Shown here: piece by piece, positions 8,622 to 19,220 of the stretch
Position numbering within the stretch: position 1 is the stretch's first letter
Layout: each line of letters opens with the position of its first letter
From: a virus
Taxonomy: Duplodnaviria; Heunggongvirae; Uroviricota; Caudoviricetes
DNA length: 19,220 nucleotides
Reading direction: 5' to 3' (one strand)
IMG/VR virus record: IMGVR_UViG_2778261559_000018
Program-made: the position numbers and the translations under genes
Notes under the pieces: model-generated
What the model saw: the letters and a program-made list of their open reading frames with translations, nothing else
What the model was told of the DNA's origin: nothing
Databases searched by the model: none

Positions 8622-10717
8622 AACCATCCTCCGGAAGTCAGCCAGGGGTTAACATCGTCAGTTACTGTTTTCTTCCGTTTTTGTTTTTTAACAGGCGTGG
8701 ATACCGGTTCCGGTGAGGATGACGGTTCGGTACTGTCCTGGACACACTCCAGCCAGGTCTCCCGGCTCGCCCACTCCGGTGCATCCGGCCAGCGGATCTT
8801 TTCGTATCCATGCAGAATGACCAGAGCCTCGGCATACACCATCAGGTCAAAAGCTTCGTTGGCACCGCGACCCGGCTTACTCCATTTCCCGTCACTGCTC
8901 CGCTCTTCATACGTCAGTTCGTCGTAAAACCAGCTCCCCAGCCAGTCAGGGAAATGCACATAGCCTGGACCTGGCGAGTCACGCCATAACGCGTTATTCA
9001 CCCGGTCTTTCAGGGCATCCGTCTGAAGAAGCCAGAGCGGCACATCACCTGCGGCCTGCGCCCGGCGGCCCGTTCGTCCGGTGTTATCAGGGAATGTACG
9101 GCTGATCAGTTTTGCGCGCCGGATGCTGTCACCCTTAAACAGGTAAATACGTTTACCAAGGCCATCACGACGGCAACGACGCCAGAATTTATAGGCATTA
9201 TCAGTGACCCCGTCTTCACCGCCGGAGTCCACCGCCATTGCCATCAGTCGCATTTGTTGAGAAGGATCGGAGGCCAGCGGCCAGCTTTTATGAAAAACAT
9301 CCGTCAGCAGGACATCCCAGTCTTCCGGATAGCTGGCCGGATCAATTCGCTGGCTCTCCCCGTCGCAGTCACTGCGCAATGACTGCGTGATGTTGTAACG
9401 ATCAATAATCCAGCGTTCGCCACGACTGCCATAGCCCGTTACCTGAACCACAAAACGGCGATGACGTCCCGCCTGCACATCCACTGTCGCCACAAGGAAA
9501 TTAACGCCATCCGGCACACTGCGGGAAGGAACTGGCTCTGCCCGCTGCTCAAGCAGTTCACTTTTTCGTTGCTCCATGCTGGCACGAGGAAGATAAGGCA
9601 ATCCCCAGTCGGTGTTGATAACCGCCCTGAGTGTTTCTTCGCTTCCTGTCGCTTCATACTCCTGTTCTGCAGTCAGTAATTTGTAAACCAGTTGCGCCCA
9701 GGTCTGATACGCAGCAGCTGGCCCTTCCATCCAGAAACTGGCGATACGGGAGCGGCGCGGTTCACCGGAAACGTTGCCGTTACGATCAATGACCTGACCT
9801 TCACGCAACCAGACTCCTGCACTATTGAGCTCACGCTTTTTCTCCGCAGTGATAATGCCGCTGCAGTGCGGGCAAAGTAGATACGCCGCCTCACTGGCTT
9901 TAAAGGGATCCGGTTCATTACGGTAGCCGGTCATGGCATCCATGGCTGGCTGAAAATATTCACCGCAGTGCGGACATGACCAGTACCAGCGGCGGCGGTC
10001 ACCACGATTGTAAAGGGAAAGAATACCAGTCGTCGGTGGCGCTTCATGAGGCGACTTACGTCGCCATTTGCTGTCGCAGATGTCACGTCCCGGCGAGCTC
10101 TCCACCAGAGTCATCCCAGCGGACATAAATGTGGTGGTACGTTTTGAGGCCAGGGAGAAACCATCACCCTCGCTGTCGATATTCTCCGGAAAACGGTCGT
10201 AATCGGTTAAGGCGACAAACCGGTAATCCGACGACGACATAATGTTGACCGAGGGCCAACCAATTTTAAGGAACGAGCCATCTCTGAACGTCTTATCATG
10301 GACATTATTGTCGTTACGACGTGGACTCATTCTTTTCTTTACCGCCGCACTGCTTCTGAACGTTCTGTCGAGGCGCTTTTTAGAATGCTCGCGGGCCTTA
10401 TCTTCGGTCATCTGCACAACGAGCATGTCCGAAGGATCGCAAACGATGGTATAGACAATCCATCCATCGATCAGACCAATGGTCTTCCCTGTTCGCGCAG
10501 GACCAACAAAAATCACCGCATCGTATTCACGCGATGCCAGGCAGTTCATGGGCTCAATGATGTAGGGTGTCAGTTCAGGATCCCATGGCACCGAGTTACC
10601 AGCCCCCTTGGGAACACGCATGAATTTTTTAACAGCCTCCGAAATCGGCATGCGACGTGGTGGGGAAAATCCTGCCGATATGTCCCTTCCCAAATTTCGG
10701 GCTGATGAAAAACCCAT
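8618..10717 (-). CDS. Terminase large subunit (lambda gpA family)
   Basis: 699 aa; Walker A-like VGPARTGKT; lambda-A-like organisation; AGGAGG 6 nt upstream of ATG 10717. Confidence 0.95.
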   Translation of the reverse strand: MGFSSARNLGRDISAGFSPPRRMPISEAVKKFMRVPKGAGNSVPWDPELTPYIIEPMNCLASREYDAVIFVGPARTGKTIGLIDGWIVYTIVCDPSDMLVVQMTEDKAREHSKKRLDRTFRSSAAVKKRMSPRRNDNNVHDKTFRDGSFLKIGWPSVNIMSSSDYRFVALTDYDRFPENIDSEGDGFSLASKRTTTFMSAGMTLVESSPGRDICDSKWRRKSPHEAPPTTGILSLYNRGDRRRWYWSCPHCGEYFQPAMDAMTGYRNEPDPFKASEAAYLLCPHCSGIITAEKKRELNSAGVWLREGQVIDRNGNVSGEPRRSRIASFWMEGPAAAYQTWAQLVYKLLTAEQEYEATGSEETLRAVINTDWGLPYLPRASMEQRKSELLEQRAEPVPSRSVPDGVNFLVATVDVQAGRHRRFVVQVTGYGSRGERWIIDRYNITQSLRSDCDGESQRIDPASYPEDWDVLLTDVFHKSWPLASDPSQQMRLMAMAVDSGGEDGVTDNAYKFWRRCRRDGLGKRIYLFKGDSIRRAKLISRTFPDNTGRTGRRAQAAGDVPLWLLQTDALKDRVNNALWRDSPGPGYVHFPDWLGSWFYDELTYEERSSDGKWSKPGRGANEAFDLMVYAEALVILHGYEKIRWPDAPEWASRETWLECVQDSTEPSSSPEPVSTPVKKQKRKKTVTDDVNPWLTSGGWL

Positions 10718-10725
10718 TATTCCTC

Positions 10726-11253
10726 CTAGAGACTCTCTCCTTCCTCATCAGGAATTAATTCAGCAGCACAAGCCTCGTAGGATTTTTCCTGAAGAGTGTA
10801 TCGCAGGTCATCAATGGCCTGCTGTACAACGCCGACGGCCTGAGGAGTCAGGGCGCAATCGCGTTCAAGAACATCCGGAATTGTCTCCAGAACCTGGACG
10901 ACAGCCTTTCTCATGGACGAATAGACGATGACTACTTCATCAACGGGGATGAGTTTTCGCTGCTCCTTTTCCAGCTTGATCCTTTCATTTTCAGATTGGT
11001 ACCAGTCCTTTCTCTCTTTCGGCTCCATACGGGATGGATCATGAACAGAGTCTGCTGCCTCATGCTTCACACTAAACAGGGCTGGCCCGACATGCTGCAG
11101 GGCGTAAACGGGGTTCCCCCTGACAGTCGCAGCCACAGGAGTGTTAGCCGCGAGGAGCCGTTTTTTTACTGTGTCCCGGTGAAGCCCAAAGGCCTCAGCG
11201 ATTTTAAAAACACTCCAGTAATAAGCATCACCGATCCCGCTCACATTTGACAT
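10726..11253 (-). CDS. Terminase small subunit (Nu1-like)
   Basis: 175 aa from ATG 11253 with GGAG upstream; helix-turn-helix-like N-terminus; about 180 bp downstream of the predicted cosN and directly upstream of the large subunit. Confidence 0.8.
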   Translation of the reverse strand: MSNVSGIGDAYYWSVFKIAEAFGLHRDTVKKRLLAANTPVAATVRGNPVYALQHVGPALFSVKHEAADSVHDPSRMEPKERKDWYQSENERIKLEKEQRKLIPVDEVVIVYSSMRKAVVQVLETIPDVLERDCALTPQAVGVVQQAIDDLRYTLQEKSYEACAAELIPDEEGESL

Positions 11254-11432
11254 AAGCAACTCCATCTGGCAGGTGAAAATCATGTTTATTTATATATTTC
11301 AATTAATTGCAAACTGGTCTAATGACAGGGAGAAAGAAATATTGTACAGGTGAAAAGAGAAATAACTTTTAATTATCAATAAATTACCAAACATGCTGCC
11401 GCCGCCATGGAAATGCAAAAACTAGCCTTTTT

Positions 11433-11452
11433 CCGCGACGCTCCCGCCCCGT
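11433..11452 (-). other. cosN-like cohesive-end site (predicted 12-nt end GGGCGGGAGCGT on the minus strand at about 11438..11449)
   Basis: Minus-strand ACGGGGCGGGAGCGTCGCGG versus lambda ACGGGGCGGCGACCTCGCGG as remembered; upstream GGGTCCTCCCGGTG resembles the lambda cosQ region. Confidence 0.6.
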
Positions 11453-11478
11453 GGCAGGGGCCCCCACCGGGAGGACCC

Positions 11479-11501
11479 GACAGCCTGACAGCCTGACAGC
11501 C
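11479..11501. repeat. Three tandem copies of GACAGCC(T) on the distal side of cosN
   Basis: gacagcct gacagcct gacagcc read directly; a gcctgacag copy recurs near 11752. Confidence 0.5.
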
Positions 11502-11637
11502 GTGATGAGCATCTGATACAGCGCTTTACATAATGGCATAGGAATAATTCAGAAGGACATCACAGCATGCCCACACAAATTAGTGTGAGTGTCCTGTTTC
11601 TTCCTACGCACAGGACTGACGAGCATGAGGGGAAAAT

Positions 11638-11814
11638 ATGCGAACCATAAATGCCTCATCTTCAGCAATGCAACCGGCATCCGAACAGGACGATATTGTA
11701 AATTCACCTAATTACGAGGACATTGCAGTAGTTGAATTGCAGCTCTGTATTAGCCTGACAGTGACAGAATGCGATATTGACTCTGTCACAGGTGAAATAG
11801 TTTGAATGATTAGC
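11638..11814 (+). CDS. Hypothetical 58-aa ORF (uncertain; overlaps a conserved non-coding segment)
   Basis: ATG preceded by GAGGGG at 6 nt; below the ORF-track size threshold; no recognisable motifs. Confidence 0.2.
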
Positions 11815-11825
11815 AGTTATGGTGC

Positions 11826-12032
11826 TCAGTCAACCACCAGGGAATAATCCTTCGAATTCTTATCGTGCTTCACCAACGCTGCCTCAATTGCCCTGAATGC
11901 TTCCAGAGACACCTGATGTTCTATACATGCAATTACAACATCCGGGTAACTCATAGAAATGGTGCTATTAAGCATATTTTTTACACGAATCAGATCCAAC
12001 GAGACTTCATCAGCAGATTGTTCTTTATTCAT
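11826..12032 (-). CDS. Conserved 68-aa hypothetical protein, homolog of a small ORF in the lambda right arm between the lysis genes and cos
   Basis: ATG with GGAG 8 nt upstream; translation [39 protein letters not shown]... closely matches a lambda right-arm ORF as I remember it. Confidence 0.7.
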
Positions 12033-12332
12033 TTTGTCGCTCCATGCGTTTGCTCGTCATCTAGCGGTTAAAATATTACTTCAAATCTTACTGCATAAAA
12101 GAGGAAAAGTATGAAAGTTTGAGTACATCGACCTTACATACATCTGTCGGTTGCATATCCCTCCTGGATGCCAGCAAGGCTCAATTTTGTTACGCAATCA
12201 ACACTATTCATTAAAAACAGGCTTAATATTTGACATAAATCATCAACAAAACACAAAGAGGTCAGACCAGATTGAAACAATAAACACGATAATGCTAACT
12301 ACGCGCCATCGTATCACATGGAAGGTTTACCA

Positions 12333-13537: not shown

Positions 13538-13741
13538 CATTTTCACTTTTTTAAATCCAACGACAGACGGCTGGCATTTAAGTATTGTGAAATATTATCA
13601 AATGTAATCATCATTGATTTACAAAAGATACATTTTGCCCCGAAAGGATTCATGTCAGAAACATCAAAAGATGATGTTCTATACTGGGAACCATGACAAC
13701 ACGGGCATCTAAAGTGAATATGGTTTGTAATATTGTCTACC

Positions 13742-13954
13742 TCAAAGCGCCACTACATGAACAGCGGCAGGACCTTTAGGTCCGTTCTCAATACCAAATT
13801 CAACTTCCTGATTCTCAGTTAATGTTTTGAAATCGTTGCTCTGAATTGCTGAGAAATGGACAAACACATCTTTGCTGCCATCTTTCGGCGTGATGAAACC
13901 AAAACCTTTTTCAGGGTTAAACCATTTCACTAAACCAGTCATTTTGTTAGACAT
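13742..13954 (-). CDS. cspI: Cold-shock protein CspI
   Basis: 70 aa [70 protein letters not shown] with RNP motifs; matches E. coli CspI as remembered; long AT-rich 5' region. Confidence 0.95.
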
Positions 13955-14316
13955 AATTATTACCTTTTGAAGAAATTAGCCCTTGGGCAGAATGGTCCGA
14001 AAAAAAATATCAGAGAGAAAAACCAACAAGGAAATCTCAAGAGGTACAAATAATAAAATTATAACAATGACTGCTTCAGATAAATTTGTAACAAACCAGA
14101 ACACCATTAACGCATGATTAACCACCCATAGCAAGGATTACTTTTGTAAAGAAAAACACAGCAATGAAAGAATAGCTTTATTTATTAATAAAACGTGTCA
14201 TTCTGATTAAGACCTTTTATCTTACCCTTAAGATTTCAGGAATTTTGGCTCATGGAAGAGTCCTTTTTATTTAAATTTTACATTCCGCGATGTAAATGTT
14301 CCGATTTAATATTACC

Positions 14317-16344: not shown

Positions 16345-16625
16345 GAGATTGTGGTGCTTTTTGTGGGAGTCATCCACTTACGCACTTTGTTTTGCGATGC
16401 CAGCAGTTAGCTTCTGCTGTGAAACTATTCATGCAGCAAACCTGCACTTCACCACAATGGTTAGCATACTTTTCCTGATTAAGATTTTGCCAAATATGCT
16501 AGCCATTGTTTCATGTATTGGACCTCCTTACTTTTTATTAAAGAGATCCAATATTCACTACTCTGTCCGTATCTCTACTCAGGCATCAGCCTTCTTCGTT
16601 ATCGTATACAGACGAGCGATGAATT

Positions 16626-16841
16626 TTAATCAGTAATGATGACATTTGCTGCTGCAGGACCTTTAGCACCTCTCTCTATAGAGAAGGTAACCTTTTGACC
16701 TTCAAATAAGGTTCGATAATTATCATTCTGAATCGCAGAAAAATGCACAAACACATCTTTACTACCATCAACAGGAGAAATAAAGCCGAAACCTTTATCA
16801 GCGTTAAACCATTTTACTAAACCAGTCATTTTATTTGACAT
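16626..16841 (-). CDS. cspB: Cold-shock protein CspB
   Basis: 71 aa [71 protein letters not shown]; matches E. coli CspB as remembered. Confidence 0.95.
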
Positions 16842-17139
16842 TCTACATTCCTTAACTTGAGCCTTTCGGCATAAATGGTTTGCATAACAGAAACGACTTC
16901 GTACTTAATTGGAGAGACTCAAAGAAGGAATAAGTGAATAACACCTGAAATGAGAACTGCTTTAGTAAACTACTTCGTATATCGTCTGTTCTTCAAACCG
17001 ACGCAGTCATTAACTCATAGTTGAACATATGAAGCAATGTTTATTTTAGACATCCAGCCACCTTCAATCCTATCAAAAAAGTAGTTTTCTCCAGGAACGT
17101 GTGTATGGTGCACCAGGTTATCAGTATTAAGGAGTTTTT

Positions 17140-17516: not shown

Positions 17517-19220
<1,704 letters not shown>

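Follow-up and report, generated by a model that had tools for sequence, protein, structure and literature searches.

A lambda-type cos site with a variant predicted 12-nt cohesive end in a cdtI/Tritos-type prophage of Escherichia coli

The stretch of DNA analysed here, a 19,220-nt caudovirus sequence from IMG/VR (record IMGVR_UViG_2778261559_000018; hereafter the window), carries terminase genes on its minus strand with a non-coding interval upstream of them. This interval raises three linked questions: whether it contains a lambda-type cos site, which cohesive end such a site would leave, and whether that end would keep the phage from exchanging packaged DNA with lambda. Sequence comparison indicates that positions 11270-11478 on the minus strand are very probably the cos site of a cdtI/Tritos-type, lambda-like prophage of E. 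coli.

Read on the minus strand from 11478 to 11431, the window gives GGGTCCTCCCGGTGGGGGCCCCTGCCACGGGGCGGGAGCGTCGCGG, which divides into GGGTCCTCCCGGTGGGGGCCCCTGCCACG GGGCGGGAGCGT CGCGG. An earlier note on this DNA, made from its letters, had transcribed the same bases, and the lambda sequence that it quoted agrees with J02459. The lambda record ends in ...GGGTCCTTTCCGGTGATCCGACAGGTTACG and starts with GGGCGGCGACCTCGCGG, giving the junction GGGTCCTTTCCGGTGATCCGACAGGTTACG/GGGCGGCGACCT/CGCGG (slashes mark the nicks). The corresponding layout in the window spans 11478-11433 and reads GGGTCCT-N20-CG/GGGCGGGAGCGT/CGCGG.

The cosQ-like heptamer GGGTCCT (11472..11478, minus strand) is the same as lambda bp 48473-48479 and occurs once in the window, 20 nt upstream of the cosN pattern; the distance from its first base to the predicted top-strand nick is 29 nt, compared with 30 nt in lambda. 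The cosN core CG/GGGCGGGAGCGT/CGCGG occupies 11433..11451 on the same strand, with ACG (11452-11450) before the predicted end and CGCGG (11437-11433) after it. Both nick-flanking CG dinucleotides are conserved, as CG/GGGCGGGAGCGT/CG at 11451-11436. The predicted 12-nt 5' cohesive end, GGGCGGGAGCGT, falls at 11438..11449 on the minus strand, end position 1 being 11449, so that the top strand would be nicked between 11450 and 11449 and the bottom strand between 11438 and 11437. This end is identical to that of lambda at 8 of 12 positions, including all of bp 1-6. The cosN core also aligns with those of Gifsy-1, mEp213 and the Providencia phage PSTCR8lys. Among related prophages, homology starts at the cosQ heptamer and the sequence is mosaic further upstream, which fits cosQ as the left boundary of the functional unit. 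Directly upstream of cosQ (11479-11500, minus strand), an 8-bp unit, GCTGTCAG, is repeated about 2.75 times; related prophages carry two units or none, indicating that the repeat is not needed for cos.

Genomic position and orientation are likewise those of lambda. The site lies between the lysis and terminase genes in the order cosQ, cosN, cosB, small terminase (TerS), large terminase (TerL), and an A/T-tract spacer, an IHF consensus, the small terminase gene and a gpA-family large terminase gene follow downstream at lambda-like spacing. No ORF of at least 60 aa lies in the 540 bp that separate the TerS gene from the next ORF upstream. The TerS gene (10726..11253, minus strand; 175 aa) belongs to the DUF1441 family (Pfam PF07278, 1.7e-44; phrog_141 'terminase small subunit', 7.9e-65), and its product is 100% identical to TerS of Tritos, cdtI and HannyBb. 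Measured from the predicted left end, the gene begins after 196 nt (PGAP/Tritos ATG at 11253) or 184 nt (cdtI-annotated start at 11265), acceptably near the roughly 180 bp that the earlier note had given. The start codon is thus at end position 197, compared with 191 in lambda. At 11281-11283 (minus strand), the window has ATG where cdtI and Tritos have CTG, creating a mechanical ORF of 185 aa that overlaps the second copy of a cosB repeat, TTTTCACCTG; TerS translation probably begins in fact at the ATG at 11253, which is preceded by a GGAG motif.

The large terminase gene (8618..10717, minus strand; 699 aa) encodes a lambda gpA-family protein with GpA_ATPase (PF05876, 4e-80) and GpA_nuclease (PF20454, 2e-86) domains. 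Its BLASTP match to lambda gpA has 24% identity (E=3e-22), and this is the enzyme expected to nick cosN. Beyond the terminase genes, on the same strand, lie a lambda-family portal gene and a Gifsy-2-like fusion of ClpP protease and major capsid protein. Upstream of cos are lysis genes and cold-shock morons. An Rfam search identified two cspA thermoregulator 5'UTR elements, which precede the cold-shock genes cspI and cspB of the prophage, and an isrC Hfq-binding sRNA (13715-14100, minus strand; 16610-17002, minus strand; 17726-17848, plus strand). The cos region itself matched no Rfam family, the interval 11200-12100 showed no terminator and one weak promoter-like site only, and the window contains no tRNAs.

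The earlier note had called the small terminase Nu1. Its function as a small terminase holds and a remote kinship with Nu1 is likely, but the family assignment fails: Pfam gives DUF1441 only, without Phage_Nu1, and BLASTP against lambda Nu1 returns E=4.6. Profile comparison by hhalign of 38 DUF1441-type with 37 Nu1-type sequences from cos loci yielded a probability of 81.7% (E 1.1e-5) over TerS residues 13-159 and Nu1 residues 3-160. PHROG cross-matches are reciprocal, with the window TerS hitting phrog_141 at 8e-65 and phrog_57 at 1e-9, and lambda Nu1 hitting phrog_57 at 1e-76 and phrog_141 at 5.6e-8. On these profile matches, the window protein is best described as a putative remote Nu1 homologue that would have the same function. 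Modelling of TerS by AlphaFold from the single sequence gave a structure too poor for use (pLDDT 44.7), and no relative emerged when PDB sequences were searched with a profile. DUF1441-type TerS proteins 36-38% identical to that of the window also occur in OM373202.1 and BK059895.1, which are named as Cylindrospermopsis cyanophages, an unexpected host for this packaging module; in both, the gene starts about 137 bp from the start of the record.

Two deposited phages have genome ends that coincide with the predicted nick. The records of cdtI (AB285204) and Tritos (OV696610) place base 1 at GGGCGGGAGCGT and finish in ...CCACG; more fully, they open with GGGCGGGAGCGTCGCGG and close with ...CCTGCCACG. 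A megablast search with a 601-bp region around the site was split exactly at the predicted nick, with query positions 1-301 matching the last 301 bases of the linear Tritos record and 302-601 matching cdtI bases 1-300. The two genomes were deposited independently by two groups, which chose the same ends. Tritos, prophage 3 of E. coli LF82, makes virions and forms plaques on K-12 (PMC9928086).

Both phages (cdtI: AB285204 / NC_009514; 2007) share with the window an identical cosN and a cosQ GGGTCCT placed 29 nt before the nick. Their cosB regions are 97-99% identical to that of the window, with a few SNPs, and their TerS and TerL proteins are 100% and 99% identical, respectively. In Tritos, cosQ, cosN, the I2-like spacer, the IHF site and both TTTTCACCTG copies agree with the window base for base. 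In cdtI, the last ~180 nt upstream of cosQ are unrelated to the window. The boundaries of the two records may have been set by analogy with lambda. Within the accessible literature, physical end mapping was found for neither phage nor for any other phage with GGGCGGGAGCGT; the Tritos paper describes att boundaries and contains no cos mapping. A full-text literature search for GGGCGGGAGCGT returned an unrelated mammalian paper only, and the announcement of phage Ayreon predicts cos packaging from TerL phylogeny only.

Downstream of cosN, a series of elements occupies the positions of lambda cosB. The I2-like spacer AAAAAGGCTAGTTTTT (11417..11432, minus strand; end positions 18-33), with A5 and T5 tracts, is conserved in all sampled DUF1441-type cos sites; lambda I2 is likewise AT-rich with poly-dA/dT segments at the same position (PMC4856287), suggesting a similar function. 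Next comes CATGGCGGCGGCAGCATG (11392..11409, minus strand; end positions 41-58), whose location matches R3 of lambda (bp 50-65) and of N15 (bp 48-59). This R3-position segment is the type-specific part of cosB: it tells apart cosB types with identical cosN and is partly conserved in PSTCR8lys. By its location it may be a TerS site. Ungapped comparison in both orientations against shuffles revealed no significant repeat of the segment further downstream in cosB (P 0.3-0.8). A lambda-style R3/R2/R1 triplet is consequently not demonstrable, the segment matching downstream cosB no better than shuffled sequence.

The I1-like IHF core consensus TAATTTATTGATA (11374..11386, minus strand; end positions 64-76) is the sole match to YAANNNNTTGATW in the window, where about one would be expected somewhere in 19 kb. 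As in lambda, it comes after the R3 position and before the following repeat, and PSTCR8lys has a perfect consensus in the same column; use of IHF at this cos site is presumed from that placement. The decamer TTTTCACCTG then occurs twice in direct orientation. Copy 1 (11347..11356, minus strand; end positions 94-103) is a candidate TerS site at the R2 position and is not conserved in PSTCR8lys, which reads TATTGAGGTG there. Copy 2 (11270..11279, minus strand; end positions 171-180), a candidate TerS site at the R1 position, lies 17 nt before the TerS start codon, and PSTCR8lys shares TTTTCACCTG.CAGA.

The exact 9-mer TTTCACCTG is found three times on the minus strand within 530 bp, with one further exact copy in the window. 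The third member of this group (11789..11797, minus strand) lies about 340 nt upstream of the nick. It is present in Tritos and HannyBb, which are homologous over that stretch, and absent from the unrelated last ~180 nt of the cdtI right arm; it is possibly an accessory site or a chance occurrence, and is probably not essential. The alignment with PSTCR8lys, whose TerS is 56% identical, is nearly gapless from cosQ to the TerS start codon and keeps the left half of cosN with its flanks, the spacer and part of the R3-position segment. The TerS contacts assigned to these elements are putative.

Taken together, these elements suggest how the site would work. TerS, through a predicted N-terminal helix-turn-helix, would bind cosB between end positions ~40 and 180, with IHF probably bending the DNA at 11374-11386. 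The gpA-family TerL positioned in this way would nick the strands 12 bp apart at CG/GGGCGGGAGCGT/CG, leaving 5' overhangs of GGGCGGGAGCGT. Packaging would proceed toward the terminase and head genes, that is, toward lower window coordinates, and GGGTCCT, 29 nt upstream, would serve as cosQ for cutting at termination.

Comparison with characterised relatives places the site within the range of natural cos variation. With lambda it shares the cosQ heptamer, the nick-flanking CG pairs, end positions 1-6, 10 and 12, the AT-tract spacer, an IHF consensus after the R3 position and a gpA-family TerL. Differences from lambda lie at end positions 7, 8, 9 and 11, in the cosQ-to-nick spacing (29 versus 30 nt), in a cosB of unrelated sequence without a demonstrable three-R arrangement, in having a DUF1441 rather than a Nu1 TerS, and in Gifsy-2-like head genes with a ClpP-capsid fusion. 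Gifsy-1, whose site in NC_010392 reads GGGTCCT...TTACG/GGGCGGCAGCGT/CGCAGG, has the same cosQ heptamer and an end, GGGCGGCAGCGT, that is one base (position 7) away from GGGCGGGAGCGT, whereas its TerS is of the Nu1 type, its head genes are of the lambda/21 type and its I2 and cosB are lambda-type. Feiss counted Gifsy-1 among the lambda-like phages with 12-nt 5' ends (PMC4669245).

A further close system is the cos of mEp213/LLS, in which GGGCGGCGCGCT is annotated as a '5' extended single-strand cohesive site' in PQ299149; the LLS authors and M. Feiss inferred a 12-nt 5' overhang for the mEp213 site (PMC12315714). It belongs to the same packaging-module clade as the window, with a DUF1441-type TerS, a TerL about 78% identical, cosQ, the 29-nt spacing, the I2 type and TTGAT at about +70. 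[quoted passage not shown] In some relatives the distance between the ACG and CGCGG flanks departs from 12 nt, being 11 nt in VT1-Sakai, 10 in 1720a-02, 9 in mEp460_4F5 and 14 in Gifsy-2. They stem from variable G-run length, from a 3-nt gap or from a different cosN, and could reflect real variation in overhang length, defective sites or assembly artefacts at the ends.

Several other readings of the locus were weighed against this evidence. That the resemblance is a coincidence in non-coding DNA with no packaging role could appeal to the shortness of the individual motifs, yet the cosN pattern CGGGGCGGNNNNNNCGCGG, with one match in the window, gave no match in 200 shuffles. Moreover, cosQ, cosN and the IHF site stand together immediately before terminase genes, ordered and spaced as in lambda, and the block is conserved across mosaic prophages with unrelated upstream flanks and in the Providencia phage. 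Shuffle statistics and homology together rule out a chance match, and we give this reading virtually no weight. A subtler alternative accepts the site as real and places the nicks elsewhere, or gives them a 10- or 11-nt overhang, so that the end would not be GGGCGGGAGCGT. Its basis is that TerL is only 24% identical to lambda gpA, that cosQ and the nick are one base closer together than in lambda, that the clade relatives VT1-Sakai, 1720a-02 and Gifsy-2 have 10-14 nt between the flanking motifs, so that overhang length is not uniform in the clade, and that deposited record boundaries may rest on analogy. Against it stand the flanking CG dinucleotides and the 12-bp spacing, exactly as in lambda, the agreement of two submitting groups on the same ends, and the 12-nt 5' overhang inferred for the related mEp213 site (PMC12315714). 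In addition, the record of Hafnia phage yong2, on whose ends a literature search for a description of the phage found nothing, has the homologous CGCGG as its first bases, which agrees with conservation of the right-hand nick. We consider a shifted or shortened end improbable. The proposal of a lambda-type cos with the variant 12-nt end GGGCGGGAGCGT is supported by the cdtI and Tritos record ends, by alignment with lambda, Gifsy-1, mEp213/LLS and others, and by the adjacent gpA-family TerL and TerS, the nick positions themselves being predicted.

The most serious alternative concerns use of the site: the cos may be an intact but idle relic, in a prophage that neither excises nor replicates, so that it would at most undergo abortive in-situ packaging or be used with a helper. 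In O26:H11 strain 11368, a prophage matches the 601-bp cos query at 100% identity. That prophage (NC_013361.1, 2156000-2176000) occupies ydfJ, the Qin site; its late region is complete, its integrase gene is split by IS600, its xis is disrupted by the IS66-like ISCro1, and its early region holds an ISEsa1 remnant. A second lambdoid prophage, carrying nleC, directly adjoins it. The insertions in int and xis mean that a copy of the 11368 type, with its cos intact, may perhaps never form a packageable concatemer without help, and the broken int and xis and the Qin-site location set it apart from cdtI and Tritos. Set against this, the late genes of the window are without exception annotated as intact, from terminase through to tail, every cos element agrees with its counterpart in the viable phage Tritos, and the 601-bp query is also 100% identical in many other strains, so that the window may belong to one other than 11368. 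Moreover, idleness would concern use in one strain and not the identity of the site. We regard an idle copy as a real possibility, somewhat short of even; the identification as a cdtI/Tritos-type cos is the same under either outcome.

To place the variant end among known cos sites, we scanned IMG/VR with GGGTCCT-N19-25-CGGGGCGG-N6-CGCGG, obtaining 126 cos sites among the matches listed (120 stretches). Among these listed matches, the lambda 12-mer GGGCGGCGACCT was commonest (68), followed by GGGCGGGAGCGT (22), the end of the window, cdtI and Tritos; GGGCGGCGCGCT of mEp213/LLS accounted for 10, GGGCGGGAGCGG of mEp460 for 5 and rarer 12-mers for the other 21. Where the downstream ORF was readable, the lambda-type 12-mer was followed by a Nu1-type TerS in 50/50 cases among the matches listed, and GGGCGGGAGCGT was followed by a DUF1441-type TerS in all 26 cases with a downstream ORF (IMG/VR matches listed, phage records and the window).

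The exact 21-mer around the end was found, among species-representative genomes, in E. coli, E. ruysiae and two MAG contigs only. These contigs, assigned to Veillonella parvula and Bacillota, most probably represent Escherichia prophage DNA placed in the wrong bin. Of 5,426 complete E. coli genomes, 652 contain 80% or more of the 601-bp cos region. Feiss and co-workers defined lambda-like phages by 12-nt 5' ends resembling those of lambda, and reported that natural cosN differences cluster in bp 7-12 while the 7-bp cosQ and the nick-flanking CG pairs are conserved, Gifsy-1 differing from lambda at bp 8, 9 and 11 (PMC4669245). All differences between the window end and lambda (bp 7, 8, 9 and 11) fall in the right half, following this pattern. 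Natural cosN variation is also the subject of a dedicated survey by Vahanian et al. (2017), as cited in PMC12315714 and PMC9026076. The variant end is neither new nor rare; it is ordinary and already known.

The distribution of GGGCGGGAGCGT further reveals what the end sequence follows. It adjoins at least three cosB sequences, namely the window type, an mEp460-like type and a PhiR40 type. Loci whose TerL is at least 84% identical to that of the window keep GGGCGGGAGCGT, or GGGCGGGAGCAT in one locus, despite differing cosB and despite TerS N-terminal regions (70 residues) without detectable similarity. At 72-79% TerL identity other right halves appear, and lambda-type TerL proteins (23-25%) go mainly with lambda's end. 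This pattern indicates that the right half of cosN tracks TerL lineage, with cosB and the TerS DNA-binding domain being exchanged independently. Co-variation of the 12-mer with TerS and cosB was rejected, as GGGCGGGAGCGT stands beside at least three cosB/TerS N-domain types and tracks TerL identity.

A broader hypothesis, which we advance tentatively and hold to be rather less probable than not, is that the cdtI/Tritos-type cosB represents an uncharacterised packaging specificity. Its architecture would be unlike the lambda R3-I1-R2(inverted)-R1, comprising a (GGC)3-containing R3-position segment, an IHF site, two direct TTTTCACCTG repeats and a third repeat some 340 bp ahead of cosN, read by a divergent DUF1441 TerS N-domain; the 12-mer would be set by TerL lineage and be common to at least three such specificities.

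The earlier note had held that a different cohesive end would limit cross-packaging; incompatibility is indeed to be expected, though chiefly through the TerS-cosB pair and not through the end. Published work places packaging specificity in TerS-cosB and finds changes at bp 7-12 tolerated: right-half mutations have little effect because cosB-bound TerS positions TerL, and a 2-base mismatch between ends costs only about 4-fold in yield (PMC4669245). In the published lambda and 21 system, the two phages have cosQ and cosN in common and exclude each other more than 1,000-fold. A cosB unrelated to that of lambda and a TerS of another family should alone prevent cross-packaging. By analogy with these systems, incompatibility with lambda would arise mainly from cosB and the small terminase, with the end sequence secondary, and the four-base end difference would be relevant to hybrid chromosomes only.

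[quoted passage not shown] Its value lies in annotation: it marks where a widespread E. coli prophage family would be cut and packaged, and it fixes the natural start of the phage genome. Carriers of the cos region include effector- and toxin-carrying EHEC/EPEC prophages, and a recognition code between DUF1441-type TerS and diverse cosB sequences would govern which co-resident prophages package one another. Further upstream of the site, a 63-bp segment (11680-11742, minus strand) is 93.7% identical to lambda 48028-48090, a non-coding sequence about 410-475 bp from the lambda right end that is common to many lambda relatives.
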